Below, piece after piece: positions 9,075 to 58,184 of a DNA stretch of 64,000 bases. Positions within the stretch are counted from its first letter, which is position 1; each line of letters opens with the position of its first letter. Location: assembly GCA_963838285.1 (NCBI GenBank), contig CAWIQP010000008.1, positions 88,686 through 152,685 on the forward strand, read 5' to 3'. The notes beneath the pieces are model-generated. The model was not told the origin of the DNA and searched no databases. It worked only from the letters and a program-made list of their open reading frames with translations. The position numbers and the translations under genes were made by a program. The DNA is from an uncultured Chloroflexia bacterium. Lineage in GTDB: Bacteria > Chloroflexota > Limnocylindria > Limnocylindrales > CSP1-4.

Positions 9075-9136
9075 GCCGTGGCGGTCTGCCGCCCGAGTGG
9101 CGGCCGTCCCGGAGACCCCGCAGCGATCGTCCCCGC

Positions 9137-9490: not shown

Positions 9491-9509
9491 GATGCCGTCC
9501 GCAGGCCTG

Positions 9510-33441: not shown

Positions 33442-35081
33442 ATGGAGTCGATCGTGAGTGACAAGGACCAGCCAAACACGAAGGGCGGATACGGGCCAGC
33501 CGCGTCGGCGGCCGCATCGAAGCCGTCGAAGGCGGACTCGCGGGGGTCGTTGGACGCGGAATCGCCCGAGTCTCCGGCCGCCGACCCTTCGACGCCCCCG
33601 GACGCCGACGTGACGACCTCGTCGGAGTCCGACCCTTCGACCTCGTCGGAGTCCGACCCTTCGACCTCGTCGGAGTCCGACTCGCCCGACCTGCCCGACA
33701 CGAACTCCAACGCCCCGGAGCGTCCCGGCCGGTCGCCGTCACTGGCGGCTTTCCTGTCATTCGTTTGGCCGGGCCTCGGGCAGCTGTATCTCCGCAACCG
33801 CCGGTTGGCGGCGGTCTTCGCGGTTCCTTCCCTCGTGGTGGTGGCGCTGCTGGCCTACGCCCTGCGGCGCGGTCCCGTGGTTCTGGCGGCGCAGCTTTTC
33901 GCCGAGCGGGGCGTCGGCCTGCTCACGGTGGCGATCATCATCCTGTTCGGGGCATGGCGTATCGCCTCGGTCGTTCTCGCGTTCCTCGGCGGGAACCGCA
34001 ACTCTCACAGAGTCGTGAACCGTGCGGTCCTGGGGGCGCTGGCGGCGATCATCGTCGTGATCCATCTCGGCGGCGGCTACTACCTGCTGGCCTATTCGGA
34101 TGCCGGGACTCAGGTCTTCAACCCCACCGACACCCATCTGATCGTCCAGGCCACGCAGGCGCCGAGCCTCGCTCCGGGTCAGACCCCTGGGCCTGCGGGC
34201 ACACCCGAGCCACTCGCGACCGTCGCCGGCGACGGTCGGGTGACCATCCTGTTCACCGGGACGAGCAGCGGGGCGAGTTCCAACCTCTACGACTCGATCA
34301 TGGTCGTCAGCTACGACCCTCAGGCCAACTCAATTCAGATGGTCAGCGTGCCCCGCGACAGCGCCAGCTTCCCCTTCTACTTCGGCGGCGTGGATGACCA
34401 CGTCTGTACAAGATCAACGCGCTGCCGACGTACGTCCGCAGCGGACGCATCAAGTCTCCGGACGATCCATACACGACGCTGATCAAAGAGGTCCAGTACC
34501 TCGTCGGCATCCCGATCAACTACTACGCCGTGATGGACATCGGCGGCTTCGAAACGATGATCGACAAGGTCGGCGGGATCGACGTGGTCAACCCCTACCC
34601 GATCGACGACCCGTCGTACGACTGGCTAGACGGCAGCCCGTACGGCTTCAGTCTCTCGGCCGGACCTCACCATCTCGACGGTCGTACCGCGATGGCCTTC
34701 GTGCGGAGCCGCCACGGCGTCGGGGATAGCGACTGGAAGCGGGCGTCGCGTCAGCAGCTGGTGCTCGTCGCCCTGCTGCACAAGATGGCTCGGCCGAGCG
34801 AGATCCTGAAGCTGCCGAGCCTCATCTCCACGCTGGGCGCGAGCGTCACGACCGACTTCCCGGCGGACAAGGTGGCGGACTTCGTGGCCCTCGGCCAGGA
34901 TGTCCCCTCCTCGAACTTCAGCCAGGTCGTCCTGGGGCCGCCCTACACCGTCACTGGCGTCAGCACCGTCAACGCGGCCAACTGCCTGCTCAACGACAAG
35001 GTCGCCGCGCTCTCGGTCCAGCTGTTCGGTACGGACAGTCTCTGGTCCGGCAAGCCCGCGCCCGCGAACACCTGTCCGTAG
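33442..35081 (+). CDS. LCP family protein, paralog 3 (close duplicate of paralog 2); frameshifted
   Basis: ORFs 33442..34482 and 34530..35081 are colinear with paralog 2 (same DKDQPN... start, SESDPSTS tail, TM, LCP motifs). There is a single-base frame change in gatgaccacgtctgtacaagatc (about 34400): downstream reading ...KINALPTYVRSGRIKSPDDPYTTLIKEVQYLVGIP is in the +1 frame. Confidence 0.75.
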
Positions 35082-41220: not shown

Positions 41221-42300
41221 ATGAAGATTCTGGTTGTTGGTGACTCTTACTGCCCGTGGCGCGCGCTCGGACCGGCGATCGATAGCCTCGCCGTGGACCA
41301 CGAGGTCACCAAGTTCGACGTCGTGGACGAGCCGGCATGGCGCCCGACCACACCGTCGGAGCAGAAAGTGCGGGAGTACCTCGGCAGCCCTCGCCAGGTC
41401 ATCGAGAGACTCGACGGCCACGAGGTCCTGATCGTCCAGGGGGCGCCGGTGACCGACGCCGTGATGGACGCGTCCCCGGCGTTGAAGCTCGTGTGCGTCG
41501 CCCGCGGCGGTCCCGTCAACGTGGACATCGCCGCGGCCACGGAGCGCGGCATCGCCGTCGTCACGACGCCCGGCAAGAACGCTCAGGCCGTGGCGGAGCT
41601 GACGATCGCCTTCATGGTGATGCTGGCCAGGCGGCTGCCCGAGGTGGTCCGGTTCCTCGAGGGCGGGGGCGAACTGGCCCGCGACAACTACGAGGGCGCC
41701 AAGTGGATGGGCCACGACCTAGATGGCCACGTCCTCGGTCTCATCGGCTACGGGCAGATCGGTCATCGCGTGGCACGCATCGCCAGGGCGATCGGCATGC
41801 ATGTGATCGTCTCGGACCCGTACGTTCCGGCTGCCCGGATCGAGGCGGATGGGGCGGAGCCGGTCGACCTGGACACGCTGCTGGCTACCGCCGACTACGT
41901 CTCGATCCACGCCCGCGCAACAGCGGACAACAAGGGCATGATCGGGCGGGCCCAGATAGCGCTGATGAAGAAGGGCGCCTGCCTGATCAACACTGCTCGC
42001 GACACGCTCGTAGATGAAGATGCGGTCTACGACGCTCTCCGTTCCGGCCACCTCGCCGGCGGCGGCTTCGACGTCGTCCGCATCCCCGACCTCTCGATTC
42101 CGCCGGAGCTGGGCCGGCGCCACCGCCTCTACGACGCCCCGAACGTAGTCATCGCCACTCACGTCGGCGGCGCCACGTTCGAGACGATGGGCCACGGCGG
42201 GGAGATGGCCGCAGCCGAGATCGGCCGGCTGGCCGCCGGCGAGCCGTTCGTCAACCTGGCCAATCCGGCCGCGCTCGAGAAGGTGGGAAACCATGCCTGA
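41221..42300 (+). CDS. D-isomer-specific 2-hydroxyacid dehydrogenase (phosphoglycerate / 4-phosphoerythronate dehydrogenase-like)
   Basis: AGGTGA RBS. Rossmann GLIGYGQIGHRVARIA, plus catalytic R/E/H-type residues in ...NTARDTLVDEDAV...ATHVGGAT. The stop overlaps the FGGY kinase start. Confidence 0.85.
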   Translation: MKILVVGDSYCPWRALGPAIDSLAVDHEVTKFDVVDEPAWRPTTPSEQKVREYLGSPRQVIERLDGHEVLIVQGAPVTDAVMDASPALKLVCVARGGPVNVDIAAATERGIAVVTTPGKNAQAVAELTIAFMVMLARRLPEVVRFLEGGGELARDNYEGAKWMGHDLDGHVLGLIGYGQIGHRVARIARAIGMHVIVSDPYVPAARIEADGAEPVDLDTLLATADYVSIHARATADNKGMIGRAQIALMKKGACLINTARDTLVDEDAVYDALRSGHLAGGGFDVVRIPDLSIPPELGRRHRLYDAPNVVIATHVGGATFETMGHGGEMAAAEIGRLAAGEPFVNLANPAALEKVGNHA

Positions 42301-43855
42301 TGCGCACGTCATGGCGATCGACCTGGGAACCGGGAGCTGCCGCGCCCTCATCTTCGACCAAGATGGTCACCAGGTGGCGATGGCCCAGCGCGAGTGGTCG
42401 CACCCGCCTCTCGCGGGAGCGCCCGGCTCGCAGCAGTTCGAGACCGCCCGCAACTGGCCGCTGATCTGCGAGTGCATCCACGAAGCCCTCGCGATGAGCG
42501 GCCTGCCCGCCGACGCGATCAAGGGTGTTTCGAGCACGGCCATGCGCGAGGGCATGGTCCTCTACGACGCGTCCGGAGCCGAGATCTGGGCGTGTCCAAA
42601 TGTCGACTCGCGTGCCGGTGACGAAGCGACTCAGCTGATTGCCGCGGGGGACGCGCGGAGGATCTACGACACCGGCGGCGACTGGGTCTCTATCACCTCC
42701 CCTGCCCGCTTCCTCTGGATCAAGAACCACCAACCGGACGTCTTCGCCCGCATCGCCCACATGGGCATGCTCAGCGACTGGGTTCTCACCAGGCTGTCGG
42801 GCAAGTTCGCCACCGATCCCTCGATCGGCGCAAGCTCAGGCCTGTTCGATCTGGCGAAGGCCGACTGGTCGCCCGAGCTGATCCGCCTGATCGGCCTCGA
42901 GCCCGGGATCTTTCCGGAGGTTCGCCAGCCGGGCACGGTCCTGGGCGATGTGACGGGCAAGGCCGCCGCAGAGACGGGCCTGGCCGCCGGAACGCCGGTC
43001 GTGGTCGGCGGCGCCGACACTCAGCTGGGTCTGCTGGGGATCGGCCGGACCACGCCGAACGCGTTCACGCTCGTGGGCGGCAGCTTCTGGCAGAGCACAG
43101 TCGTCGTGGATAGGCCGCTCATCGATCCGGAGGCGCGGCTCCGCTCCCTCTGCCACGTCATGCCGGGGCAGTGGATGGTCGAGGGCATCGGCTTCTACTG
43201 CGGCCTGACGATGCGCTGGTTCCGCGACGCCTTCTGCGACCTGGAGAAGGCCCGGGCCGCCGAGCGCGGAGTGGATCCGTTCATGGTCATGGAAGAGGAA
43301 GCGGCCACGGTCCCACCGGGATCGAATGGCGTGCTGCCCATCTTCGGCAACATCATGGATGCCAAGCGCTGGGTGCAGGCGTCGCCCTCGTTCGTTCAGT
43401 TCGACATCGACAATCCCGGCACCTCGGGCCGCAAGGAGTGCGTTCGGGCCATCGAGGAGAGTGCCGCCTACGTCGCCCTGGGGCACCTGCGGATCATCGA
43501 GAGCCTGACGGGCTACAGGTTCGAGGAGATCGTGTTCACCGGCGGTGGGGCCAAGGGACACCTCTGGCCGCAGGTTATCGCCGACGTGCTGGGCGTCTCC
43601 GTCAAGGTCCCCGAGGTCAAGCAATCCACCGCCCTGGGCGCCGCGCTGTGCGCCGGCCTGGGCGCGGGCATCTACGGCGATCTGGCAGCCACTGCCGCCG
43701 AGGTCGTCCGTTTCGAGCGGACGTTCGAGCCCGACGCGGCCGCCCACGCCGCCTACCTCACTCTTTTCGACCTGTGGCACGCCGTCTACGGCCGTTTCCT
43801 CGAGATGGGCGACGCCGGCCTGCTGCGCCCGCTCTGGAAGCCCGCCGGAGCCTGA
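42293..43855 (+). CDS. FGGY-family carbohydrate kinase (LsrK / xylulokinase / L-erythrulose-kinase-like)
   Basis: 520 aa: [16 protein letters not shown] (FGGY N-terminal phosphate-1 motif), C-terminal [20 protein letters not shown]. Confidence 0.9.
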
Positions 43856-43929
43856 CCCACACGAACTCAGTACAGCCCACCGATCAGTTCGCCATCCCCA
43901 CCCAGGGACCGGGCAGAAAGAGGAGCGAG

Positions 43930-44825
43930 ATGCCGGAAGCCGACAACGCCGAAGAGAAGAGCTACTACGAAGACGTTCCGCAGCGAAACAGCGCCTTCTT
44001 CCTCAAGGGCGCCGGGGCATACGACTGGGGCATGCAGAACCGCCTGGCCCGGGTCTTCAACCCGGAGAGCGGCAAGACGGTCATGCTGGCCGTCACTACG
44101 GTTACTTCATGGGCCCGACGTCGGGCCTCGAGCGGATCGACGTCAACATCGTGCCGCTCGTCCCCTACACCGACGCCCTCTTCTGCACACGCGGCATCCT
44201 GCGGACAGTCGTACCCGCGGCGACCCGTACGCCGAACGTCCTTCGCGCAAGCGGCGGTCCCTCGATCCTCAAGGAGCTGTCGAACGAGCAGATCGCCATG
44301 GACATGGAGGATGCCGTCCGGCTGAACAGCTGCGGGGTCGGCGTCCAGGTCTTCGTCGGTGGTGAGTTCGAGACCCAGTCCATCCACAACATGACCCGCC
44401 TGGTGGACGCCGGGCTCCGGGTAGGACTGCCCGTCCTGGGCGTCACCGCCGTCGGCAAGGACATGGTCCGCGACGCCAAGTACTTCCGCCTCGCGACCCG
44501 CATCTGCGCCGAGCTGGGCGCCCAGATGGTCAAGACCTACTACGTGCCCGACGGTTTCGAGACCGTCACGGCGTCGTGCCCGGTGCCGATCGTCATGGCC
44601 GGCGGCAAGAAGCTGCCCGAGATCGAGGCCCTGACGATGGCCTATCGGGCCGTCCAGGAAGGCGCCGCCGGAGTCGACATGGGCCGCAACATGTTCCAGA
44701 GCGAGTCGCCCGTAGCCATGATCCAGGCCGTCCGCAAGGTGGTGCACGAGGCCATGAAGCCCGAGCACGCGCTGGAGCTGTTCAAGACGCTCACGTCCGA
44801 GTCCAAGCAGCCCGTCGGCGCGTAG
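43930..44825 (+). CDS. class I aldolase of the DhnA/LsrF (DeoC-fold) family; one frameshift
   Basis: ATG at 43930 ([35 protein letters not shown]...GKTVMLAV). It continues in ORF 43545..44825 as [12 protein letters not shown]...KTYY...MAGGKK (Schiff-base lysine region). One base is missing in gtcactacggttac near 44096. Confidence 0.75.
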
Positions 44826-44834
44826 GCACCCGCG

Positions 44835-45566
44835 ATGGCGACGACAGCGCACCTGCCGTTTCTCGACGGCAGGGCTCGCCTGACCATCGGGATCAACACC
44901 GCCGACCTGGGGCACCTTGCCGACGAGGTCCGCGTCCTCGAGGACGCCCGGGCCGAGATCGTCCACGTCGACGTCATGGACGGCGTCTTCTGCCCGGCGA
45001 CCACCGTCGGGCCGCCCTTCATCAAGGCGATCAGGACGCCGCTTCTCAAGGACGCCCACCTTATGATCGTCGACCCGATCGAGAAGGTGGCCGACTACGT
45101 CGCGGCGGGCGCCGACATCGTCACCTTCCAGGTCGAGTCCACTCGCCATTCCTATCGGGGCCTGCAGGTCCTCGGCAAGGCCGAGAACGCCAACGACCCG
45201 GCCCGCGGGATCGTCCGGGGAGTGGCGCTCAACCCGGGGACGCCCGTATCGGCGGTGGAGCCGCTGCTCGACGAGATCGGGAGTACGTGCTCATCCTGGC
45301 CGTCAATCCCGGCTGGGGCGGCCAGAAGTTCATCGAGTCCACCGAACGCCGCATGGCCGAAGCGGAAGGTTCTATCAAGCGCTCCGGCCGGCAGATCATG
45401 CTCGGCGCCGACGGCGGCGTGACGAAGGACAACATCGCCAGAGTCGCCGGCCATGGGGCCGAACCTCATCGTCACCGGCAGCGCCGTCTTCGACGGCAAG
45501 ACTCCGGCCGACAACGCCCGTTTCATGCTCGACGCGGTCCGGGGCATCGCGGTGGCGACGACGTAG
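44835..45566 (+). CDS. ribulose-phosphate 3-epimerase family protein; two compensating frameshifts
   Basis: N-terminal part (IVHVDVMDGVFCP, ...ALNPGTPV) in ORF 44835..45422. Middle (EYVLILAVNPGWGGQKFIESTERRMAEA...IMLGADGGV) lies in the frame of ORF 44576..45631. The C-terminus (GPNLIVTGSAVFDGKTPADNARFMLDAVRGIAVATT*) returns to the first frame, with stop at 45564-45566. Confidence 0.75.
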
Positions 45567-45643
45567 GCCAACGCCGCTCCGGAATCGAAAGGACGGGGTC
45601 GCGACGCCGGTCGGGCCCCGTCCTTTTGTAGTTGCCGGAGCCG

Positions 45644-46414
45644 TCAGAGCTCGGCGTTCACGATGAAGCCGCCGTCGACGAGGAGCGTCGCGCAGGTCAC
45701 GTACGTCGCGTCGTCCGAGAGGAGATAGGTGATCGCGCCGGCCATCTCCTCGGGCTCTCCGGGCCGGTGGATCGCGATCCGGTCGATGTAGTACTTCCAG
45801 ACCTCGGGGGCAGCGTCGAACATCGGCGCGCTCATGTTGGTCTTGATCCAGCCCGGCTCGACGGCGTTGACGCGGATGCCGTGCTCGCCGAGGTTGCATC
45901 CGAGCGCCTTGGCCAGCATGGAGATCGCGCCCTTGGTCCCGCAGTAGGCGGTCTGGTACGGGGCGCCGACGTGAGCGGAGATGGAGCTGGTGCAGCAGAT
46001 CGCGCCGCCGTGGCCCTCCTTGATCATCTGCTTGGCACCTTCCGTGACCACGACCCAGGTGCCGCGGACGTTGGTCTCCATGAGGTTGTTGAAGTCTTCG
46101 AGGCTCGTCTCGTCCCACTTCATGAACGGGTTGATGGCCGCGTTGGAGACCACGTAGTCGAGCCGGCCGCCCTTCTCGGCGACCTCGTGGACCATCCGAA
46201 TGACCTGTTCGGGGTCGCGCATGTCGGCCACGACCGGGAAGCCCTCCCCGCCCGCCTCCTTGATGCGGCGAAGTGTCTCGGTGGGATCGCCGGTCGGCCG
46301 CTGATTGACGCCGACCAGCGCCCCTTCGGCGGCCAGTCGCACTGCCGTCGCCTGTCCGATTCCATTCGTGGCCCCCGTCACGAGCGCCACCTTGCCGACG
46401 AATCGCTTCTCCAT
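45644..46414 (-). CDS. SDR family oxidoreductase (candidate polyol/ketose dehydrogenase)
   Basis: ATG at 46412-46414 with GGAGGA upstream. TGATNGIG Rossmann motif, NAAI, catalytic YxxxK (YCGTKGA). Confidence 0.9.
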   Translation of the reverse strand: MEKRFVGKVALVTGATNGIGQATAVRLAAEGALVGVNQRPTGDPTETLRRIKEAGGEGFPVVADMRDPEQVIRMVHEVAEKGGRLDYVVSNAAINPFMKWDETSLEDFNNLMETNVRGTWVVVTEGAKQMIKEGHGGAICCTSSISAHVGAPYQTAYCGTKGAISMLAKALGCNLGEHGIRVNAVEPGWIKTNMSAPMFDAAPEVWKYYIDRIAIHRPGEPEEMAGAITYLLSDDATYVTCATLLVDGGFIVNAEL

Positions 46415-46478
46415 TGGAACTCCTCCGAGTGGTCCTGCCGTGAGTGCCATGGTCGATGCCGCTATCGGGACGCCGGAA

Positions 46479-47237
46479 TCAGTGCATGCCGCGGCCGCCC
46501 GCGACGATCAACAACTCGCCGGTGATGAAAGCCGCCTCGTCCGAGGCGAGGAATACGGCCGACGACGCGACGTCGTCGGGAGTGCCCCAGCGCTTGAGGG
46601 CGGTTTCCTCGAGGATCCTCTGCTGCACCTCCGGGTCGATCTCCTCGACCATGTCCGTCCTGATCCAGCCCGGGCAGATGGCGTTGATCCTGACCTGGGG
46701 TCCGAGGGCGAGGGCCATCGCCTTGGTCAGGCCGTTCATGCCCGCCTTCGAGACGACGTACTCCGTGAAGCGCATCGCCGACGGGTGGTATAGGCCGGAG
46801 TTCGACGACATGTTGATGATCGAGCCGGACCCCTGGCGGATCATCACCGGCGCGACTTCCTTGGAGCACAGGTAGGCGCCCTTGAGGTTGACGTCGATGG
46901 TGACGTCCCAGTCGTCCTCGGTCGTCTCGAGGACGCCCTTGGCGACCATCACGCCGGCGTTGTTGACCAGGATGTCCACGCGGCCAAACCGTTCGAGCGT
47001 CCGCTCGACCAGGCGCCGGACGTCCGCGCTCCGCGACACGTCCGCTTGCACGTCGATCGCGGTTCCGCCCGCCGCTTCTATCCCGGCGACGACGGCGGCC
47101 GCGTTCTTCGACCCGGCGGTGTAGTTGACGACGACGGCCGCACCCTCGACCGCGAACCGCTCCGCGACCGCGCGGCCGATGCCTCTTGACGCACCGGTGA
47201 CTATCGCGACTTTGCCCGCCAAGCGCCCTTCGGCCAT
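46479..47237 (-). CDS. SDR family oxidoreductase (second paralog)
   Basis: ATG at 47235-47237. TGASRGIG, NNAG, catalytic YVVSKAG. Confidence 0.9.
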   Translation of the reverse strand: MAEGRLAGKVAIVTGASRGIGRAVAERFAVEGAAVVVNYTAGSKNAAAVVAGIEAAGGTAIDVQADVSRSADVRRLVERTLERFGRVDILVNNAGVMVAKGVLETTEDDWDVTIDVNLKGAYLCSKEVAPVMIRQGSGSIINMSSNSGLYHPSAMRFTEYVVSKAGMNGLTKAMALALGPQVRINAICPGWIRTDMVEEIDPEVQQRILEETALKRWGTPDDVASSAVFLASDEAAFITGELLIVAGGRGMH

Positions 47238-47404
47238 GGCCGTCTCCTTCCAAATCGCCCTGTTCGAAATCGAACGTGACCAGAACCCGGCCCCGGCCAT
47301 CGCGGGCTCCTCTCGCCGGACACTCCGCGAGCGGCGGCAGACGCCGGGCCGGCCGAAGCGGCAACTGGAGGATGCCCTCCGGCCGAGCCCCGCTGCCCGG
47401 GTAT

Positions 47405-47911
47405 CTACTTGGCCGGAGGGTACTGGCGGACCGGTGTCAGCTCGATCGCGTGACCGCTGCCCGACTCCGCGACGAAGTGGGCGTCTTTGGCCGTGTCGAG
47501 GTAGTAGAACTCGATCGTCTCGCCGATGCGGCCGCCCATCGACATCTCATACCCAGCGTCGCCGAAGCGCTTCTTGAACGCATCGGACTCTTCCTGGCTG
47601 TGACTCATCAGGGCAATGTGCTGTACGCCCTCGCCGTATCTGGCCAGGTGTTCCTTGTAGATCGAGTCGCCTTCCAGCGGCTGGATCAGTTCGAAGATGA
47701 GGCCCGGCTGGACTTCGCATTCCGCGCCGATCATCGAGTAGTCCGCCGGCTTGCCGTGCAGGTGCTGGTGGTGGAGCTTCGGCGGCACGTGCTCGTAGAC
47801 GTTCCAGGGGCCCCACCCGAACATCTCGTGATAGGTCTTCATCGCCGCGTCGATGTCCTTGACGACGACCGCGATCTGGCTGATCCGGTACGGCTTCTCG
47901 GGCGGGTTCAT
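47405..47911 (-). CDS. VOC family protein (glyoxalase / bleomycin-resistance / dioxygenase fold)
   Basis: ORF 47405..48202. ATG at 47909-47911 with GGAGGA upstream gives MNPPEKPYRISQIAVVVKDIDAAMKTYHEMFGWGPW...GVQHIAL (169 aa). Confidence 0.7.
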   Translation of the reverse strand: MNPPEKPYRISQIAVVVKDIDAAMKTYHEMFGWGPWNVYEHVPPKLHHQHLHGKPADYSMIGAECEVQPGLIFELIQPLEGDSIYKEHLARYGEGVQHIALMSHSQEESDAFKKRFGDAGYEMSMGGRIGETIEFYYLDTAKDAHFVAESGSGHAIELTPVRQYPPAK

Positions 47912-48174
47912 GGTCTCCTCCAGGTCATCGGTTCCAGGGGCCGGACCGCGCACCGTTGCGGCGACCTCGCCTTCCAGCGCAAAGGCCGACGTTGCGCCAT
48001 CGATCGGAAAGATTGTGCCACCAGGGTCAAGGTCATGCCATACTGGGATGCGTCGCGATACGGTGCCGGCCGAACGGGTAATCTGCAACTCGAAACGCAT
48101 GCCGGCTCGAGTGGCCAGGTGGCAGGCCGATGGGACCGCCGCCGACCGGGCCCGGGCCCGATTGGATGGGAGAC

Positions 48175-49143
48175 ATGGCGACAGGGCAGTCTTCACGGGC
48201 AACGCCGGCGGCCGGCGGCCGCGTCACAGATCTGCTCGTCGAGGTCGCCCGGCGCTTCTACCTTGTCGGTGAGACCCAGGTCGAGATCGCCCGCGATCTC
48301 GGGCTCGATCCGTCGACGGTCTCGAGGTACCTGAAGCGCGCTCGAGACGAGGGAGTCGTCCGAGTCGAGATCCGGCCGCCTCTCCGCCGGAACGTAGACC
48401 TGGGCCGGCAACTCGCCGACGCCTTTCACCTGTCCCGCGTGGTCGTCGCCTCGACCGAAGAGGAGGGCGATCTCTCGTGCCTGGCGGATGTGGCGGCAGA
48501 CTACGTCGGAACTCTTCTCCGCAACGGCATGAGGGTCGGCCTCGGCTGGGGATCCACGCTCTCGGCCACGGTCGGATGCATGGAACCGGGCGCCGTATCC
48601 GACCTGATCATCACGCAGCTGGCGGGCGGCTTGAGCGATCCCGTTCCGGGCATTCAGGGCCACGAGCTGGCCCGCCACCTGGCCAGCCTCTACCCAGGGA
48701 GCCTGGTCCACTACCTGCACGCTCCGTCGATCGTGGACTCGCCGGCCATCAAGGAGGCGATGCTCAGCGATTCCTCCGTCCAGGCCGCCCTGGCGCTGGC
48801 AACTCAGAGCGAATTGGCCCTGGTCGGGATCGGCGAAATAGGCCCGGAGGCGACGCTCCTGCGGTCGTCTCAGGTGACCCGAGGCGACCTTGAGCTGCTG
48901 CTGGCTGACGGGGTCGTGGGCAGCATGAACGGGCGCTTCTTCGGCCGCGACGGCAGGCCCGCCGGCCACCTCGACGAGCGCACCATCGCCATCGAGTGGG
49001 CCCAGCTGGCGGCGATCCCGACCGTCGTCGCCATTGCCGGCGGTCGGACGAAGGCCGATGCGATCCTCGGCGCCCTCCGCTCCGGTTGCGTCGACATCCT
49101 GATCACCGACGAGGCAACCGCGACGGCCCTGGCAGAGCGCTAG
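48175..49143 (+). CDS. SorC/DeoR-type sugar-binding transcriptional regulator (EryD/LsrR-like)
   Basis: GGGAGA RBS then the ATG at 48175. N-terminal HTH (LLVEVARRFYLVGETQVEIARDLGLDPSTVSRYLKRA), C-terminal sugar-phosphate-binding domain (GLGWGSTL...VGIGEIGPEA...). Confidence 0.85.
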   Translation: MATGQSSRATPAAGGRVTDLLVEVARRFYLVGETQVEIARDLGLDPSTVSRYLKRARDEGVVRVEIRPPLRRNVDLGRQLADAFHLSRVVVASTEEEGDLSCLADVAADYVGTLLRNGMRVGLGWGSTLSATVGCMEPGAVSDLIITQLAGGLSDPVPGIQGHELARHLASLYPGSLVHYLHAPSIVDSPAIKEAMLSDSSVQAALALATQSELALVGIGEIGPEATLLRSSQVTRGDLELLLADGVVGSMNGRFFGRDGRPAGHLDERTIAIEWAQLAAIPTVVAIAGGRTKADAILGALRSGCVDILITDEATATALAER

Positions 49144-49429: not shown

Positions 49430-50590
49430 ATGACGCTTACTCCTGGCCGTCCCGCCGTCATCGAGACCGCGACCGCACGGGTGCTGGGCATGTATGGCGG
49501 GGCGATCGGCCGCCGGCGCGAGGAACTGATCACGCCGGCGCTCGTGCTCGACGTCGATGCGGCGCAACGGAACATCGATCGCATGGCGGCACGGATAGCG
49601 CAGCTGCCGGCCGGCATCAGGCCGCATATCAAGGTTCACAAGAGTCCGGAGCTCAGCCGGCGCCAGATGGCCGCCGGGGCGCTCGGGCTGTGCACCGCTA
49701 CCGTCTGGGAAGCCATGGTCATGTTCGAAGCCGGCATCGACGACCTCTTCGTCGCCAACACGATCGCCGGACCGGACAAGATCCGCGCCATCGCCGAACT
49801 AGCCCGCGAGGCCAGCATCCGAGTGGCCGTCGACGACGCCGCGAATGCGGACGCCCTGTCCGCGGCAGCCGGAGCGGCCGGTTCGACCCTCGGCGTGATG
49901 ATCGAAGTCGATACCGGCATGGATCGTGCCGGAGTGGACGACGGGGACGCCGCCCTGGCCCTGGCGCGGCATCTCATGGACCTGCCCAACCTCCGGCTCG
50001 ACGGGATCACGGGCTACGAGGGTCACTGTTCCCTGACGCCGGAGCGAGATCTCCGGCTGGAGAAGCAGCGCGCGGCCATGGCGCTATTCACGGGCGTCGC
50101 CGACAGGCTGATCGCGGCCGGCATCCCCGTGAAGGTCCTCTCGGCCGGCGGAACTGGTACGTGGGAATGGACGGCTTCCCATCCAAGGCTGACGGAAGTC
50201 CAGGCCGGTACCTATGCGGTCATGGACATGTTCCACGGCCACATGTCGCCGGGGTTCGAGCACTCGCTGACTGTCCAGGCCACGGTCATCAGCAAGCCGC
50301 ATGGGCACGTGATCGTCGACGCCGGCAACAAGTCGATGGGCGCGGGCGGGCTCGCCACGATCGTCGGCTATCCGTACGAGTCGTTCCGCTTCGACGAGGA
50401 GCACGGCATCTTCAATGCCCCGGACGACGCGCCCCTCAAGGTCGGCGACTCGGTCGCCCTGGTGCCGGGCTACTCCCCGGGCACGGTCAACTGGTACGAC
50501 GCCTATCACGTCGTCAAGGACGACCTGGTCGTGGACATCTGGCCCGTCGTACCGCGCGGACCGGGCCACAACGGGCTGCTGGCCAGCTGA
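49430..50590 (+). CDS. PLP-dependent enzyme of the alanine-racemase-fold DSD1 / D-threonine aldolase family
   Basis: ORF 49253..50590. ATG at 49430 gives MTLTPGRPAVIE...PALVLDVDAAQRNIDRMA...IRPHIKVHKSPELSR (PLP lysine in KVHK)...GYEGH...C-terminal beta-domain. Confidence 0.85.
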   Translation: MTLTPGRPAVIETATARVLGMYGGAIGRRREELITPALVLDVDAAQRNIDRMAARIAQLPAGIRPHIKVHKSPELSRRQMAAGALGLCTATVWEAMVMFEAGIDDLFVANTIAGPDKIRAIAELAREASIRVAVDDAANADALSAAAGAAGSTLGVMIEVDTGMDRAGVDDGDAALALARHLMDLPNLRLDGITGYEGHCSLTPERDLRLEKQRAAMALFTGVADRLIAAGIPVKVLSAGGTGTWEWTASHPRLTEVQAGTYAVMDMFHGHMSPGFEHSLTVQATVISKPHGHVIVDAGNKSMGAGGLATIVGYPYESFRFDEEHGIFNAPDDAPLKVGDSVALVPGYSPGTVNWYDAYHVVKDDLVVDIWPVVPRGPGHNGLLAS

Positions 50591-50665
50591 CTCGGAAGGC
50601 ACCGGCGACCAGCTATCCGCCACTTGCCCCAGGCCGGGACACCGAACCAGGAGGCGAAGTCAGAA

Positions 50666-51627
50666 ATGGCAACCAATGCGGCAGCCCCGAAGGTAAGCCT
50701 GGCGGAGTTCGACCGCATCTTCGAGTCGGTCAAGAACTGGGGGAAATGGGCTCGGACGACCAGCTCGGAACCCTGAACTACATCACCCGCGACAAGGTTC
50801 GTCAGGCGGCGGGCCTGGTCAAGTCGGGCCGGCAGGTCTCAATGGAGATCCCCATCAACAAGGCGGCCGGCCCGGACAATCCCAACCAGGCTTTCCACTA
50901 TCTCACCCAGGGGCACGACATCGACATCGGCTCGAGCGGACTCACTTTCGCGCTCGACTTCCTGGGAATGGCGTGCCACGGCGACTGCCACACCCACATC
51001 GACGCGCTCTGCCATATCGCCTACAAAGGCCTCACCTACAACGGCAAGCCCGCCAACGAGGTCATCACCTCGAAGGGCGCGACCACGCTGGACATCACCA
51101 GCTACGCGAACGGCCTGGTCGGCCGCGGCGTACTCCTGGATATCCCGCGCCTGCGAGGCGTCAAGTGGCTCGAGCCCGGCGAGGCCGTCCGGCGCGACGA
51201 ACTCGAAGCGTGCGAGAAGAGCATCGGCCTCACGCTGGGCGAAGGCGACATCCTGGTATTCCGAACAGGCCACCACCGCCGCCGGCCTCGAGCTCGGCGC
51301 GTGGAGCAACGATCCGCCGCCGGCCGGCGAAGGCAAGGCCGGCCTTCACGTCGACACGATCCCCTGGATGCACGAGCGCAGGATCGCCGCCTTCCTTCCC
51401 GATGGCGACGGCGAAGCGGTGCCCAGCGTGGTCGAGGGAATGATCTATCCGATCCACCCGCTGCAGATAACAGCGATGGGCATGCTCGCCTCGGACAGCC
51501 TCCAGTTCGAGGACCTGGCCCGCGCCTGCGAGGAAGAGGGCCGATGGGAGTTCATGGTCGTGGGTCTGCCACTCCGCCTCCCCGGCGGCACGGGCTCTCC
51601 CTGGAATCCGATAGCGATCTTCTGATG
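50666..51627 (+). CDS. cyclase-family protein (kynurenine-formamidase / isatin-hydrolase-like metal hydrolase); two frameshifts
   Basis: Start MATNAAAPKVSLAEFDRIFESVKNWGKW; G-homopolymer loss near 50745; middle in the ORF 49369..51690 frame (SDDQLGTLNYITRDKV...HGDCHTHIDALCHIAYKG: the H-x-D / H metal motif); C-terminus in ORF 51368..51625 (MHERRIAAF...). Confidence 0.7.
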
Positions 51628-51779: not shown

Positions 51780-53345
51780 ATGGCACAAGCATTGCCAGCT
51801 GTGTCGGTAGCCGAAACCAACCTAAAGGCAGGCGCCCTGAAGCTGCCATCCCATCTTCATGCAGAGCCTGACGATGGTCGCGCCGGGCATCGCCGCGGTG
51901 TTCTACACGCCCGTCGTCGTCAGCCAGGCCGGGCTCGCCGCGCCGCTGGCGTATCCAATCGCGGGCATCATCGTCCTCCTCACCGCCATCGTTCTCGCGC
52001 GGACTGGCGCGGGCAGTACCGTCCGCGGGCGGCTACTACACCTACGTTGCCAAGGGCATCCACCCGCGTGCCGGGTTCATCGTTCTCCTGGCTGAACATC
52101 ATCTACGCCCCGCTCGTGCTGGGCGCCGTGACCGTCTTCGGCGGCTATGTGATCTCCAGCTCGCTCAGCTGGACCGGTTTCTTCCAGGACTGGTTCCCGC
52201 TCCTGTTCGGTCTGGTCGCGGTCACGGTGGTGGCCTTCATCCAGTACCTGGGAGTCCAGCTGTCAGGCAAGACCCTGGTCGTCCTCGGCGGCATTGAGCT
52301 GATCGTCGTCTTCATCCTCGGCCTGTGGGGCCTCGCCAGCCCCGGACCGGGCGGTTTGAACCTCAAGCCGTTCGATCCGGGCAACGCGGTCAGCGCCTCC
52401 GGCCTTTTCCTGGCCGCCGTGTTCGCCATCCAGGCGTTCACCGGATGGGAAGGCGCCGCTCCGATGGCCGAGGAGACCGAGAACCCGCGCCGGAACGTTC
52501 CGCGCGCGCTCATCGGCTCGGTGATCCTCTTGGGCATCTTCATCATCGTCGTCCAGTGGGGCGTGATGGTCGGCTGGGGCACGGACAACCTCAAGACCAT
52601 TGCCAGTTCCACGGTGCTGCCGGGCATCGCGCTCGCGCAGAGGTTCTGGGGTGGTGCCTGGGGCATCCTCCTGCTGATGCTCTGCTCCTCCGTGGTGGCC
52701 GTGTCCATCGCCTGCGCCAACGTCGGCACCCGGATGTGGTACCGCATGGGCGTGGACGGCGCGTTCCCCAAGTGGTTCGCCAAGGTCGACTCGACCCGCA
52801 AGACCCCGATCAACGCGATCATCGCCCAGTGGGTCCTGGCCATCGCGACCGTTCTCGGCCTGACGCTCCTCGCCTATGTGGCCAGCCCGGCTCCGACGGG
52901 CGGCTCGGTCAACATGACCCTGGCCTACCAGAACCAGTACTACTTCGACGGCTACCTCATCGGCTACGTCGTCCTGGCGATCTACACGCTGGGCAACGTC
53001 GCGGCCTTCATGCTGTACTGGAACCAGCGCCGCTCCGAGTTCAACTGGATCCTGCACGGGCTCTTCCCGCTGCTTTCCACCCTCGGCATGATCGCCGTCC
53101 TGCTGTTCTCGCTGAACATCATCGGCGGCGATCCGCTGACGTTCCAGCCGGGCAGCGCCAGCCTGCCGCCGGCGCCGTTCAACATCGCCGTCGTGTTCGT
53201 CGCGGTCTGGATCGTCGTGGCCTGCGCACTCGTCGTGTACATGCGATTGGCCGGCCACGAGGACTGGATCGCCAAGGCGGCGGAGGCTGCTTCCGAGCGG
53301 CCCGCGACGCCGGAGGAGATCGCCGAGGCAGCCAGCAAGTGGTAA
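51780..53345 (+). CDS. APC-superfamily amino-acid permease; about three frameshifts in the first 300 bp
   Basis: 12-TM profile in ORF 51780..53345 from SWLNIIYAPLVLGAVTVFGG onward. The N-terminus is spread across frames (ORF 51859..52095 MQSLTMVAPGIAAVFYTPVVVSQAGLAAPLAYPIAGIIVLLTAIVLAR; a third frame gives PSAGGYYTYVAKGIHPRAGFIV). Confidence 0.75.
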   Translation: MAQALPAVSVAETNLKAGALKLPSHLHAEPDDGRAGHRRGVLHARRRQPGRARRAAGVSNRGHHRPPHRHRSRADWRGQYRPRAATTPTLPRASTRVPGSSFSWLNIIYAPLVLGAVTVFGGYVISSSLSWTGFFQDWFPLLFGLVAVTVVAFIQYLGVQLSGKTLVVLGGIELIVVFILGLWGLASPGPGGLNLKPFDPGNAVSASGLFLAAVFAIQAFTGWEGAAPMAEETENPRRNVPRALIGSVILLGIFIIVVQWGVMVGWGTDNLKTIASSTVLPGIALAQRFWGGAWGILLLMLCSSVVAVSIACANVGTRMWYRMGVDGAFPKWFAKVDSTRKTPINAIIAQWVLAIATVLGLTLLAYVASPAPTGGSVNMTLAYQNQYYFDGYLIGYVVLAIYTLGNVAAFMLYWNQRRSEFNWILHGLFPLLSTLGMIAVLLFSLNIIGGDPLTFQPGSASLPPAPFNIAVVFVAVWIVVACALVVYMRLAGHEDWIAKAAEAASERPATPEEIAEAASKW

Positions 53346-55114: not shown

Positions 55115-55897
55115 TCAGCCGGCCGCGGAATCCTCCGCCGTGAGCGTGCGACTGGCAATGCTTCCCGCGTGGGCTATCCGGGCGAATTCGGCCGGGTCGA
55201 GCGCGCTCCGCCCGACGAACAGGCCGTTCACCCCGGGTTGGACCAGGATGCCCCCGGCAATGTCCGCGCTCACGCTGCCGCCGTAGATCACCGGCACCTC
55301 GGCCCCGCGCCCGACGTTCTCCCGCAACCAGGTGTGGATCGCGCCGTGGACCTCGCCGACCCACCCGGGTTCCGCGGGCGCCGACCCGACGCCGATCGCC
55401 CAGACGGGCTCGTACGCCAGCACGAGACGGCTCGCGTCGGCGGACGCCAGCAGCTCCAGCTGGCGGCGGACGCGGGTAATGACCCCGGCCAGGGGCTCCC
55501 GCTGCCGGTTGGCCGACGCACACTATCGCCGTCATGCCCCAACGCTGGATCGCGGAGACCTGGGCCGGGACTCGCTCGTCGGACGCGCCCTGCATCGCAC
55601 CGCCGCTGCGCAGATGGCCGACCTCGACGTACGTGCAGCCAAGATCGGCCAGCATCGGGGCGGACACGTCCCCCGTGTGAGCGCCCGAGTCCTCCGGGGT
55701 CCACGTCCTGCGCTCCCCACGCGACCCGGCTCCCCGCGGAGCCCCTGGGCGACCGCCCAGATCGCCGTGAATGGCGGAAGCACGAAGAGATCACAATCCA
55801 CGACGTCGTCCACCAGGGGCCGCGGCGCCCAGCAGATATCGCGAGGCCTCACTCGAGGTGAATTTTTAGTCCAGCTCGTGCCAATGAGCATGCACAT
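55115..55897 (-). CDS. triosephosphate-isomerase paralog (TIM-like; candidate tetrulose-phosphate isomerase, LerI/EryH-like); multiple frameshifts
   Basis: N-terminus M(C)MLIGTSWTKNS...VLPPFTAIWAVAQGL (ORF 55532..55897); middle GAHTGDVSAPMLADLGCTYVEVGHLRSGG...IVCVG (frame of ORF 54225..55667); C-terminus LVLAYEPVWAIGVG...VIYGGSV...GLFVGRSAL (ORF 55115..55423). At least three indels at about 55690, 55670 and 55510. Confidence 0.75.
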
Positions 55898-55905
55898 GCC
55901 GCCGC

Positions 55906-56538
55906 CTATTCCCGAGCCGTCGGACTGCCGCGGAGGGCGGCCGCCATCGCCTCGACGATGATGGCGAACGAAGTCGCTCCGGGATCAGCCGAGCCGCGGC
56001 TAAGCTCGCCGAGCTTGCTGGCCCGCCCGACCGTGGCGATCATGCCGGCGGTCGAGTCCGCTCCCCTGCGCGCGGCCGCCGCGGCCGCATCGATTCCCAC
56101 CAAGAGATCGTCGCCTCGGACCTCGGAGGCACGCAGCGATTCGACCAGCGGGTGAAGCGCGTCGAGGACGGTCTTGTCGCCGGGTTTGGCCTTTCCGCGC
56201 TCGGCGATTCCGGCTTCGGCTGCCTCGGCACAGGCGCGAAGCTGGCCCACCGTCACCGGCGGGGCCGGGGCCAACGCCGCGATCTTCAGCAGACCCGTCA
56301 TGTAGATCGGACCGATGGCACCGCCGACGGAGCCGATGCCGAGGGCGACCTGTCGGATCAGATCCGGCCCGGAGGCGTCGGGGGACGCCGTCAGCTTCTG
56401 CCGGACGCTTCGCGCGGCGATCGCCATCGTCATCCCGTGGTCGCCGTCGCCGGCCCTTGCGTCGAGGACGCCGAGTTCGTCTCGGGCTGCCTCCAACGCG
56501 TCGGCGGCGGCAAGGATGCAGCTTCGTAGCTCGCTCAT
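55906..56538 (-). CDS. dhaL: dihydroxyacetone-kinase ADP-binding subunit DhaL-like
   Basis: ATG at 56536-56538 overlaps the dhaK stop (ATGA). MSELRSCILAAADALEAARDELGVLDARAGDGDHGMTM (DGDHG motif), about 210 aa. Confidence 0.85.
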   Translation of the reverse strand: MSELRSCILAAADALEAARDELGVLDARAGDGDHGMTMAIAARSVRQKLTASPDASGPDLIRQVALGIGSVGGAIGPIYMTGLLKIAALAPAPPVTVGQLRACAEAAEAGIAERGKAKPGDKTVLDALHPLVESLRASEVRGDDLLVGIDAAAAAARRGADSTAGMIATVGRASKLGELSRGSADPGATSFAIIVEAMAAALRGSPTARE

Positions 56539-57557
56539 CGGGCGTACCCGACAGCTCGGGCCGTGGCGTCGAGCAGCTCGCGCAGCTCCGCGTCGAGGTC
56601 CATCACGGTCACGGACGCTCCGGTCATCTCGAGCGAGGTGATGAACTCTCCGACGTGACTCCGCGTGACGGTGTTGCCCGCCGCCTCGAGCGCCTTGCGC
56701 GCACCCCGATAGAGGATGTACTGGTCCAGGTGAGCCGTGGCGCCAAGGCCGTTCACCATGAGCGCGAACTCGTGCCCGGACGGCGAGTCCATGTCCGAGA
56801 GGATGACGTCCACGAGCGACGCCGCGATCTCGTCGGCGGTCACCAGGGGCCCGCGGCGCATGCCCGGCTCGCCGTGAACCCCCATCCCGATCTCCATCAT
56901 GTCCGCGGGGATCTCGAAGGTGGGCCTGCCCGAGCCGGGGACCTCGCACGGAGAGAGCGCAACGCCCATGCTGCGAGTGGCCGCGTTCGCCTTCCGGGCA
57001 ACCCGGTCTACCTCGTCGAGTGTGGCGCCGCGTTCGGCCATCGCGCCGATGCACTTGAACACGTAGATGTCGCCCGCGGTGCCGCGCCGCTTCTCAGCCT
57101 CTGCCCGCGGGGAGGAGGCGACGTCGTCCATCACCCGGACCTCGCGGACGTCGATGCCCTCGGCTTCGGCGAGTTCCCTGGCAAGGCCGAAGTTGAGCAC
57201 GTCGCCGCTGTAGTTCCCGTAGCTCATGACCACGCCACGGCCCGTGTCAGCGGCCCGGATCGCATCGAGGCATACGTCGGGGGGCGGCGAGGCGAAGACG
57301 TTGCCGCACGCGGCCGCGTCGGCGAACCCGACTCCGACGTACCCCGCGAACGCGGGCTCGTGGCCGGAGCCGCCGCCCACGACGAACCCCACCTTCGGTC
57401 CGGCGGGAGTGCGCCGCGCAACGACGCGCGGCGCGGCCAGGCGCACCAGGTCCGCGTTGGCCGCGACGAAGCCTTCGAGCATCTCGTCGACCGCGTCGAA
57501 CGGGTCGTTGATGATCTTCTTGAGAACCCCGCGGGAGACCTCCGGCTGCTGTGGCAT
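56535..57557 (-). CDS. dhaK: dihydroxyacetone-kinase substrate-binding subunit DhaK-like (candidate D-erythrulose / DHA kinase)
   Basis: AGGAGGA then ATG at 57555-57557. ...GFVVGGGSGHEPAFAGYVG...VVMSYGNYSGDVLNFG...HGEPG. Canonical DhaK motifs. Confidence 0.9.
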   Translation of the reverse strand: MPQQPEVSRGVLKKIINDPFDAVDEMLEGFVAANADLVRLAAPRVVARRTPAGPKVGFVVGGGSGHEPAFAGYVGVGFADAAACGNVFASPPPDVCLDAIRAADTGRGVVMSYGNYSGDVLNFGLARELAEAEGIDVREVRVMDDVASSPRAEAEKRRGTAGDIYVFKCIGAMAERGATLDEVDRVARKANAATRSMGVALSPCEVPGSGRPTFEIPADMMEIGMGVHGEPGMRRGPLVTADEIAASLVDVILSDMDSPSGHEFALMVNGLGATAHLDQYILYRGARKALEAAGNTVTRSHVGEFITSLEMTGASVTVMDLDAELRELLDATARAVGYAR

Positions 57558-57604
57558 CTCCATCCTCCTGGTCGAGCGCCCCGACCGCGGGCGCCTGCTG
57601 CCGG

Positions 57605-58075
57605 TCAGACTCGGCCTGAGTCGGGCGTGCGTTCGCCGGCCGTGATCTTATTCACCTTGCGCTCGGATTCCCCGCCGGAGAACTCGGAGGCGAGCCAGAT
57701 GCGCACCAGCGACTTCGCGAGCTCGGGCCCGACGACGCGCGCGCCCATGGTCATGATCTGGGTGTTGTTCGACTTCCGCGACCGCTCGGCCGAATAGGGG
57801 TCGTGCACCTGGGCGGCCCGGATCGGGCACCTTGTTGGCCGTGATTGCCATGCCGATCCCGGTGCCGCAGATGAGGACCCCCTATCGTGCTCGCCGCGAG
57901 CGATGGCGTGGGCGACCTCGTAGCCGATGTCCGGGTAGTCGACGCTGTCGAGCGAGTAGCAGCCGTAGTCCTTGACCTCGATCTCCTCATCGTGCAGCAG
58001 CTCGATCACCGTTTGCTTGAGTGCGAAGCCCGCCTCGTCGCATCCGATGGCAATCTCACGGTACTTGGAAGTCAC
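57605..58075 (-). CDS. RpiB/LacA/LacB-family sugar-phosphate isomerase (candidate D-erythrulose-4-P / ribose-5-P isomerase, DerI/EryI-like); two compensating frameshifts
   Basis: GTG at 58073-58075 with AGGTG 5 nt upstream gives VTSKYREIAIGCDEAGFALKQ...DYPDIGYEVAHAIARGEHDRG. Then G-homopolymer loss; (V)LICGTGIGMAITANKVP in the frame of ORF 57648..57851; back in frame for IRAAQVHDPYSAERSRKSNNTQIMTMGARVVG...RKVNKI. Confidence 0.8.
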   Translation of the reverse strand: MTSKYREIAIGCDEAGFALKQTVIELLHDEEIEVKDYGCYSLDSVDYPDIGYEVAHAIARGEHDRGSSSAAPGSAWQSRPTRCPIRAAQVHDPYSAERSRKSNNTQIMTMGARVVGPELAKSLVRIWLASEFSGGESERKVNKITAGERTPDSGRV

Positions 58076-58184
58076 GCTCGCACCTGCGCGAGTTGGTCCT
58101 CGAGATCGTCGCCCGTCAGGGTCCGGCCATCGACGGCCGGCGTCGATTGCGCTGCCTCCATTCTCTCTCTTCTCCTCGTCGGCC

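Follow-up and report, generated by a model that had tools for sequence, protein, structure and literature searches.

The Lsr system of Escherichia coli and Salmonella (lsrRK and lsrACDBFG, with lsrE in Salmonella) handles autoinducer-2 (AI-2; 4,5-dihydroxypentane-2,3-dione, DPD), a signal of quorum sensing. It comprises an importer (LsrACDB), a kinase forming phospho-DPD (LsrK), an isomerase (LsrG) and a thiolase (LsrF). LsrF passes the acetyl group of 3-hydroxy-5-phosphonooxypentane-2,4-dione (P-HPD; CH3-CO-CHOH-CO-CH2OP) to CoA and releases dihydroxyacetone phosphate (DHAP) (PMC8016206). The active-site residues are Asp57, His58, Lys203, Gly226/227, Asp251 and Arg254 (PMC2728841). Here, we describe a four-gene operon encoding relatives of LsrK and LsrF, a D-isomer 2-hydroxyacid dehydrogenase and an epimerase of the ribulose-phosphate 3-epimerase (RPE) family. 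It lies in a 64,000-nt stretch (G+C ~69%) of contig CAWIQP010000008.1 from an uncultured Chloroflexia bacterium of the Limnocylindrales; this whole stretch is referred to as the window. The operon had been picked out in an earlier annotation of the window (the original prediction). It appears to be a counterpart of the Lsr degradative arm, and not a quorum-sensing Lsr system. We put at roughly one half the probability that it is a conserved catabolic operon of uncultured Limnocylindria-type Chloroflexota, which would turn a 1-deoxypentulose-like sugar into DHAP and acetyl-CoA and would play no part in quorum sensing.

The kinase and the aldolase-fold enzyme look like true members of the LsrK and LsrF families. 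The kinase scores 617.6 bits with the LsrK equivalog model NF008187 (cut-off 528) and falls far short of all other FGGY models, including those for xylulokinase (211 against 380) and glycerol kinase (124 against 590). It is 44.6% identical to E. coli LsrK over 518 aa and its top match in the PDB is 5ya0 (9e-147). An exact-match look-up of the window kinase returned no record; the closest homologues are all metagenomic and are labelled "autoinducer-2 kinase" at source. The LsrF-family protein, after repair of its reading frame, scores 487.4 bits with the LsrF equivalog model NF006081 (cut-off 297) and fails the models for archaeal fructose-bisphosphate (FBP) aldolase (102.8 against 430) and ADH synthase (159.9 against 299). 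It is 62.6% identical to E. coli LsrF. In the canonical lsr operon of a Lacticaseibacillus plasmid, LsrK and LsrF are 44.2% and 51.4% identical to their E. coli counterparts, figures that the cluster proteins equal or exceed. The original prediction had proposed an LsrK/LsrF-like pair, as opposed to a xylulokinase or glycerol kinase with an archaeal-type FBP aldolase, and these scores bear it out for both enzymes.

It had also been proposed to check the Schiff-base lysine (Lys203 in this scheme) and the LsrF-specific residues. Residues Asp57, His58, Lys203, Gly226, Gly227, Asp251, Met252, Gly253 and Arg254 are invariant in eight relatives, archaeal ones included, and the active-site residues of the relatives are identical to those of E. 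coli LsrF. The window copy itself departs from this pattern: the Asp57 codon has a 1-nt deletion and His58 is replaced by Tyr. In neighbour-joining trees, calculated without support values, the cluster kinases form a clade apart from the LsrK proteins of E. coli and Lacticaseibacillus, and E. coli LsrF branches beside the bacterial soil clade.

The other two enzymes are less specific. The best NCBIfam match of the dehydrogenase is the phosphoglycerate dehydrogenase model TIGR01327, at 204.7 bits and thus below the SerA equivalog cut-off of 454. Its best PDB match is phosphoglycerate dehydrogenase from P. horikoshii (1wwk). The resemblance to PdxB suggested by the original prediction did not prove specific; the PdxB model NF001309 gave 82 bits against a cut-off of 434 and covered only residues 161-280, which form the NAD domain. 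The enzyme is probably a generic D-2-hydroxyacid dehydrogenase, nearest to the short phosphoglycerate dehydrogenases. The epimerase falls below the cut-offs of the Rpe models TIGR01163 (168.5 bits against 212.6) and NF004076 (155 against 165). Its Pfam domain is complete, and HVDVMDG, DAHLM and GADGG motifs can be made out once the frame is repaired; we regard it as a divergent RPE paralogue. It is 33% identical to Salmonella LsrE (E = 4e-36) and scores 103 bits, against a cut-off of 530, with NF010658, a 254-position "epimerase" model that we take to be of the LsrE type. The two proteins share a superfamily and are not orthologues. The original prediction had counted an RPE-family gene as evidence against AI-2. 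That argument fails, since the Salmonella lsr operon ends with just such a gene.

The four genes are closely spaced on the plus strand, as had been predicted (Table 1). The kinase ATG and the dehydrogenase stop codon share 8 nt, ATGCCTGA. The LsrF-family gene starts 74 nt beyond the kinase stop, and a 9-nt gap separates its end from the epimerase ATG. Pfam E-values for the four proteins, from 1e-15 to 1e-47, are far beyond chance. The original prediction overlooked that two of the four are not continuous open reading frames (ORFs); the LsrF-family and epimerase genes are frameshifted in the window. A hairpin of -50.7 kcal/mol (z = -5.43; 0 of 200 shuffles equally stable) follows the epimerase gene and is likely a bidirectional terminator closing the operon. 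A scan for consensus promoters and terminators between 40.8 and 48.3 kb yielded nothing useful and overlooked this obvious hairpin.

As a whole, the cluster does not qualify as an Lsr system, because it lacks the importer, LsrG and an LsrR orthologue. The likenesses are considerable. The kinase and thiolase belong to the same equivalog families, a SorC-family regulator is close by in both, and an RPE-family gene stands at the operon end both here and in Salmonella. However, tblastn searches with E. coli LsrA, LsrB, LsrC, LsrD and LsrG found no match in the window. LsrG was likewise without a match in 84 related loci, where the only LsrACDB matches were of LsrC to generic ABC permeases, at 28-30% identity, in three loci. 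The SorC regulator had been noted as nearby, and its presence is confirmed. It reaches 120 bits with the LsrR model (cut-off 486) and is 28% identical to E. coli LsrR, so that it is best described as a relative, and not an orthologue, of LsrR. Furthermore, the kinase falls in a separate clade and a 2-hydroxyacid dehydrogenase is translationally coupled to it. The partners also differ, being a vicinal oxygen chelate (VOC)-fold protein, short-chain dehydrogenases (SDRs), a D-threonine-aldolase-like enzyme and an APC permease.

A scan with one genome per species recovered 287 relatives. The best 80 of these 287 belong to Limnocylindria and other Chloroflexota, Ktedonobacteraceae, Thermoleophilia (Gaiellaceae, Solirubrobacterales), Acidimicrobiales, Dormibacterota and Acidobacteriota, and they include thirteen archaeal metagenome-assembled genomes (MAGs; Bathyarchaeia, Nitrososphaerales). 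The window itself is nearest to Limnocylindrales MAGs (92%). Four neighbourhoods at 65-85% identity have the same gene order of dehydrogenase, kinase, LsrF and epimerase. Neighbours were counted at 49 loci with at least 6 kb on either side of the kinase. The most constant companion is the VOC-fold protein, near the kinase at 47 of the 49 loci (96%). The dehydrogenase is present at 44 (90%), always directly upstream, and LsrF at 43, in 40 cases directly downstream. A D-threonine-aldolase-like pyridoxal phosphate (PLP) enzyme also accompanies the kinase at 43 loci (88%), an SDR of any kind at 41 and the epimerase at 36. Less constant are the APC permease (27 loci), the SorC regulator (26), the cyclase-family hydrolase (24) and Dak1 (23). 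RpiB-like, Dak1, Dak2 and triose-phosphate isomerase (TIM)-like genes accompany the block in 35-47% of loci, and AraD/FucA-family genes in 31%. Neither LsrACDB nor LsrG was found near the kinase at any of the 49. All-against-all clustering of the unassigned ORFs from 84 loci revealed no further family common to more than 10 loci. The four-gene synteny on which the original prediction depended is conserved in dozens of genomes, and the block keeps it in Chloroflexota, Actinomycetota and soil MAGs of archaea.

The dehydrogenase and LsrF come and go together. Both are present at 42 of the 49 loci, neither at 4 and one alone at 3. Seven loci without dehydrogenase and LsrF were identified (L025, L043, L054, L061, L063, L070 and L084), from six Bathyarchaeia MAGs and one Acidobacteriota MAG. 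There, the kinase is preceded by a VOC gene and an AraD-like gene of the class II aldolase family. It is adjoined by genes for E1-alpha, E1-beta and E2 subunits of a pyruvate/acetoin-dehydrogenase-type complex; these lie directly downstream of it in six loci, and in L025 they occupy the opposite strand. An example is the L061 block (8717-14852), the kinase of which reaches 668 bits with the LsrK model. The E1 and E2 models score below or near their cut-offs, so that acetoin-type and pyruvate-type complexes are not separated. A 2-oxoacid/acetoin-dehydrogenase-type complex is in itself unusual in these archaea. We considered the class II aldolase-family gene as the source of a cleaving aldolase and rejected this; its best models are L-ribulose-5-phosphate 4-epimerases.

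Complexes of the pyruvate/acetoin-dehydrogenase type split CH3-CO-CHOH-R and transfer its acetyl group to CoA as an acetyl thioester. The RPE family (at C3) and the AraD family (at C4) both work on 2-ketopentose 5-phosphates, and phosphoglycerate dehydrogenase, on its own substrate, oxidises the hydroxyl next to a phosphate ester. The simplest compound that would serve both the LsrF and the E1/E2 variant is, we infer, 1-deoxy-2-ketopentose 5-phosphate, CH3-CO-CHOH-CHOH-CH2OP. In the pathway that we propose, the SDRs beside the operon would yield a five-carbon methyl-keto sugar, most likely a 1-deoxypentulose; they could form such a methyl ketol from a deoxy polyol or a deoxy sugar. The LsrK-family kinase would then phosphorylate the terminal CH2OH. 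The RPE-family enzyme, helped in some genomes by the AraD-like enzyme, would interconvert stereoisomers of the resulting 2-ketopentose 5-phosphate analogue. Next, the phosphoglycerate-dehydrogenase-like enzyme would oxidise the C4 hydroxyl beside the phosphate ester to give P-HPD. Finally, the LsrF-family enzyme would move the acetyl group to CoA, yielding DHAP and acetyl-CoA. In the E1/E2 variant, 1-deoxy-2-ketopentose 5-phosphate would be converted directly to acetyl-CoA and glyceraldehyde 3-phosphate.

This scheme would account for what is seen in the neighbourhoods. Because the LsrF route needs prior oxidation at C4, the dehydrogenase and LsrF would be expected to occur as a pair. The E1/E2 complex stands in for both at some loci, and either route would give acetyl-CoA and a triose phosphate from a single kinase product. 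A 2-ketopentose 5-phosphate intermediate would also explain why RPE-type and AraD-type epimerases occur.

Parts of this design are met elsewhere. Cleavage of a methyl ketol to acetyl-CoA and an aldehyde is the oxidative reverse of 1-deoxyxylulose 5-phosphate formation. The acetoin and pyruvate dehydrogenases resemble the present system through the seven loci in which E1/E2 genes stand beside the kinase; they differ in that the window has no such complex. In the DHAP shunt for 5-deoxyribose and in the FucK/FucA routes, a deoxy ketose is phosphorylated and then releases DHAP and a two-carbon unit. The logic here would be the same, and some cluster loci have class II aldolase-family genes. The two-carbon unit, however, would leave as acetyl-CoA after an oxidation and not as acetaldehyde, and the kinase is of the LsrK type and not MtnK/DrdK or FucK. 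Tetritol and erythritol catabolism (EltD, LerK, LerI, DerI and DerK in Mycobacterium smegmatis; the ery loci of Brucella and rhizobia) likewise brings together, within a single neighbourhood, FGGY and Dak-type kinases, TIM-family and RpiB-family isomerases, polyol dehydrogenases and a SorC/DeoR regulator. Conversely, tetritol pathways have no LsrF-type thiolase or 2-hydroxyacid dehydrogenase and end in erythrose 4-phosphate, not DHAP and acetyl-CoA, and the Dak/TIM/RpiB set is optional in the cluster loci.

LsrF orthologues, 54-57% identical, are also paired with sugar kinases and dehydrogenases, and not with LsrG or LsrB, on two plasmids of cultured bacteria. On Shinella plasmid p1 (L089, 8986-18864), the partners are a 651-aa SDR, a sugar ABC transporter, an FGGY kinase and a GlpD-type dehydrogenase. 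On Aureibacter plasmid pAT4 (L086, 7197-9867), LsrF directly follows DhaK and DhaL in a DhaK-DhaL-LsrF operon. The partners differ from those in the window, being GlpD-type dehydrogenase, long SDR and ABC transporter in one case and DhaK/DhaL in the other. We know of no characterisation of either context. Kinase, dehydrogenase and LsrF-type thiolase together seem to be a recurrent catabolic design.

The main alternative to a catabolic operon for methyl-keto sugars is a transporter-less module that scavenges AI-2 without signalling. DPD would enter by another carrier and be converted to phospho-DPD (P-DPD) by the kinase, the VOC protein would replace LsrG, and LsrF would produce DHAP and acetyl-CoA. 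DPD is left as a simple alternative by the high similarity of LsrK and LsrF: both enzymes exceed their equivalog cut-offs and resemble the E. coli proteins as closely as do those of a canonical Gram-positive lsr operon. The fold of the VOC protein, so constant beside the kinase, supports enediol-type isomerisations, and an RPE-family gene and a SorC-family regulator belong to the Salmonella lsr system too. Moreover, a hydrated alpha-diketone, P-DPD for example, is in principle a further possible substrate for cleavage by the E1/E2 complexes. We nevertheless think DPD scavenging unlikely. The route from DPD needs no redox step (PMC8016206), and it would leave unexplained a dehydrogenase that is translationally coupled to the kinase at 90% of loci and co-varies with LsrF. 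No locus has an LsrB-type receptor or transporter or LsrG, and the kinases form a clade of their own. Peat and soil organisms (Chloroflexota, Actinomycetota and archaea) carry the cluster, which includes polyol-type dehydrogenases and whose permease belongs to a different class. The original prediction had favoured a phosphorylated four- or five-carbon keto sugar or diketone over AI-2 as such. The case against AI-2 has gained from the missing LsrACDB and LsrG, the dehydrogenase-LsrF pairing and the E1/E2 replacement; the substrate itself we infer. The same chemistry might instead act on another ketose phosphate, such as a pentulose 5-phosphate, a 5-deoxypentulose 1-phosphate (from 5-deoxyribose) or a 6-deoxyhexulose phosphate, with release of glycolyl-, acetyl- or lactyl-CoA. 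Judging from the LsrF mechanism, dehydrogenase and thiolase would suit any R-CO-CHOH-CO-CH2OP. The AraD/FucA-family genes fit such substrates, as do the different kinases and dehydrogenases found with LsrF in Shinella and Aureibacter. We consider this rather improbable, given that LsrF has the same active site as the acetyl-transferring E. coli enzyme, that E1/E2 complexes of this type usually take acetyl (methyl-ketone) donors and that the pentose phosphate pathway already handles ordinary pentulose phosphates. A tetritol or erythrulose pathway is very improbable. Here, the FGGY enzyme would be an L-erythrulose kinase acting with the Dak, TIM-like and RpiB-like proteins to give erythrose 4-phosphate, and the aldolase-fold enzyme would split a ketotetrose phosphate. 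The genes at 55.1-58.05 kb do belong to the enzyme families that form the M. smegmatis route, which includes LerK, LerI and DerI (PMC10733421). However, roughly half of the loci lack them, in contrast to the near-constant dehydrogenase and LsrF. The kinase reaches the LsrK cut-off and that of no pentulose or other FGGY model, and the RpiB-like protein of a relative gives 150 bits with the DerI equivalog (cut-off 240), although it passes generic RpiB models. In addition, a C4 substrate cannot yield the acyl-DHAP skeleton that LsrF cleaves. The four-carbon option of the original prediction is accordingly hard to reconcile with an LsrF so close to that of E. coli and with an identical active site.

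Several further points weigh against the 1-deoxypentulose pathway. The proposed route has no place for the PLP enzyme (88% of loci), for the APC permease or for the cyclase-family hydrolase, and the VOC protein has no assigned step in it. The first three follow the kinase across phyla and domains, which suggests an amino-acid-like compound as the possible entry form of the carbon skeleton. As links between these proteins and the kinase substrate we considered aminoaldonate cleavage, Amadori compounds and S-ribosylhomocysteine; none was convincing. The tblastn thresholds for calling a gene present were arbitrary, the 49 loci come from phylogenetically related MAGs and are not independent samples, and the trees carry no support values. 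We found no substrate-bound (DPD-bound) LsrK structure with which to check specificity residues. A literature search, which included LsrK or LsrF with erythrulose, deoxy sugars and D-threonine aldolase, found no description of the cluster, although this is weak evidence of absence.

Table 1. Position and assignment of the operon genes and neighbouring features in the window.
Feature	Position	Strand	State or remark	Basis
D-isomer 2-hydroxyacid dehydrogenase	41221..42300	+	359 aa, intact	Pfam 2-Hacid_dh_C 2e-46
LsrK-family FGGY kinase	42293..43855	+	520 aa, intact	NF008187
LsrF-family DhnA-type enzyme	43930..44825	+	298 aa after repair, 1-nt deletion	NF006081
RPE-family epimerase	44835..45566	+	243 aa after repair, two insertions	Pfam Ribul_P_3_epim 6e-44
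GC-rich hairpin with U-run (UUUUGU)	~45591..45629		between convergent epimerase and SDR genes	RNA folding
SDR1, short-chain dehydrogenase	45647..46450	-		Pfam adh_short_C2 2e-57
SDR2, short-chain dehydrogenase	46482..47300	-		Pfam adh_short_C2 2e-65
VOC protein (glyoxalase/methylmalonyl-CoA-epimerase fold)	47411..47911	-		Pfam Glyoxalase_4 4e-11
SorC/DeoR-type sugar-binding regulator	48130..49143	+		Pfam Sugar-bind 2e-61
Fold-type III PLP enzyme, D-threonine-aldolase-like	49430..50590	+		Pfam Ala_racemase_N + D-ser_dehydrat
Cyclase-family (kynurenine-formamidase-like) hydrolase	50666..51625	+	two frame changes	Pfam Cyclase on middle piece
APC-family amino-acid-type permease	51780..53345	+		Pfam AA_permease_2 2e-29
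RpiB-like, Dak1, Dak2 and TIM-like genes	55115..58054	-		tblastn, NCBIfam

Among the neighbours in the window (Table 1), SDR1 comes nearest to the NCBIfam models for sugar 1-dehydrogenases and for butanediol/acetoin reductases without reaching the cut-off of any. SDR2 passes only a broad glucose 1-dehydrogenase subfamily model (252 bits against 215). SDR1 is far more constrained than any of its neighbours, with 97-98% amino acid identity to its relatives at a synonymous divergence of 0.5-0.6 (dN/dS ~0.03). Weak matches link the VOC protein to PDB structures of glyoxalase-like proteins and methylmalonyl-CoA epimerase, and it might act as an isomerase like LsrG, as an epimerase or as a lyase. 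Among PDB structures, the PLP enzyme is closest to D-threonine aldolase 4v15 (8.5e-62). At 50590-50631, between the gene for this enzyme and that for the cyclase-family hydrolase, the window lacks an SDR gene that is present in L001 and L002. This gene is also unmatched at the corresponding position in the closest relatives, L006 and L008, so that its absence looks like a lineage-level deletion. The RpiB-like, Dak1, Dak2 and TIM-like genes appear to form an operon of the enzyme families of a ketotetrose (erythrulose) phosphate route. They are followed on the plus strand by genes for an Fe-ADH_2 domain protein (within 57972-59753) and a HAD hydrolase (59486-60622). Further away, the region 10000-14000 has a strong positive GC skew (0.12-0.20). 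Its sole long ORF, of 1826 aa, is on the minus strand (10917-16397), and a noisy third-position GC plot hints at plus-strand coding.

The condition of the genes in the window is a separate matter, independent of their function. In the LsrF-family gene the frame changes at 44094/44095, where one G of the Asp57 codon is missing by comparison with six relatives. The epimerase gene is longer by ~2 nt at 45276-45280 and by 1 nt at ~45447-45450, insertions that leave ~57 codons out of frame with a frame-0 stop at 45420-45422. These indels are found only in the window and not within long homopolymers; the relatives agree among themselves at every site. We entertained and rejected the idea that frameshifts are confined to the lsr-type genes, as neighbours are hit too. 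Frame-shifting indels also occur in the cyclase-family (50666-51625), APC permease (51780-52086), DUF4432 (53464-54583) and TIM-like (55115-55930) genes. The tblastn pieces of the cyclase-family gene run through frames 2, 1 and 2. The permease gene has three window-only 1-nt insertions in its first 300 nt and its ORF stays open, whereas the middle of the TIM-like gene is out of frame and its translation contains two stops. Counting frameshifts across the whole window with a frame plot of third-position G+C was too noisy to be of use. At 33442-35081 and 37669-39600, LytR_cpsA_psr and GGDEF domains are only partly covered by ORFs, which suggests more frame errors outside the catabolic island. 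Three genes of ~3 kb each, at 219-3098 (minus strand), 5454-9074 (plus) and 24270-27554 (plus), are intact, so that frame errors are unevenly distributed; they encode two multi-PAS hybrid histidine kinases and a UvrD/PD-(D/E)XK helicase-nuclease.

Consensus or assembly error is a more likely cause of the LsrF and epimerase frameshifts than decay. This preference rests on several indel sets that total a multiple of three within 100-250 nt, as errors of consensus or alignment would, on low dN/dS and on close relatives that are all MAGs. Against the closest relative, L006, dN/dS is 0.05 for the repaired LsrF gene and 0.14 for the repaired epimerase gene, at a dS of ~0.5. These values are in the same range as for intact neighbours, and the repaired genes appear to be under strong purifying selection. 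That the frameshifts are real mutations in a recently decaying island is an appreciable, if lesser, possibility. The indels are unique to the window, avoid long homopolymers and cluster in one island (LsrF, epimerase, cyclase, permease, DUF4432 and TIM-like genes), and the three ~3-kb genes elsewhere are intact. His58Tyr, also restricted to the window, alters an otherwise invariant phosphate-binding residue; another change, Gln62Met, was suspected of being a sequence error and cleared, as the closest relatives have it too. The clustering, the intact long genes and His58Tyr leave some probability to very recent inactivation, although the seemingly split GGDEF and LytR genes lie outside the island. 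With many local frame errors, gene calls from the window need care.

Database pipelines name these proteins "autoinducer-2 kinase" and "P-HPD thiolase", and such names invite claims of AI-2 sensing or quenching in peat and soil Chloroflexota, Actinomycetota and archaea. What surrounds the genes speaks rather for catabolism, with a redox step and with import by another system, and this reading would correct a widespread quorum-sensing annotation in soil metagenomes. Should the proposed chemistry be right, it would be a new way from a deoxy keto sugar to DHAP and acetyl-CoA, would give a function to the conserved dehydrogenase, VOC protein and epimerase and would offer an evolutionary origin for AI-2 degradation. 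A broader and more tentative view, which we think more probably wrong than right, is that LsrK and LsrF are not primarily enzymes of a quorum signal. They would instead form the core of an undescribed, widespread, CoA-dependent catabolism of 1-deoxypentulose or methyl-keto sugars in soil and peat bacteria and archaea. If so, a thiolase version (dehydrogenase and LsrF) would give DHAP and acetyl-CoA, and an archaeal version with a thiamine- and lipoyl-dependent E1/E2 complex would give a triose phosphate and acetyl-CoA; the methyl-keto sugars may arrive within an amino-acid-like compound. The enterobacterial arm that processes AI-2 would then be a derived offshoot of such a metabolism.

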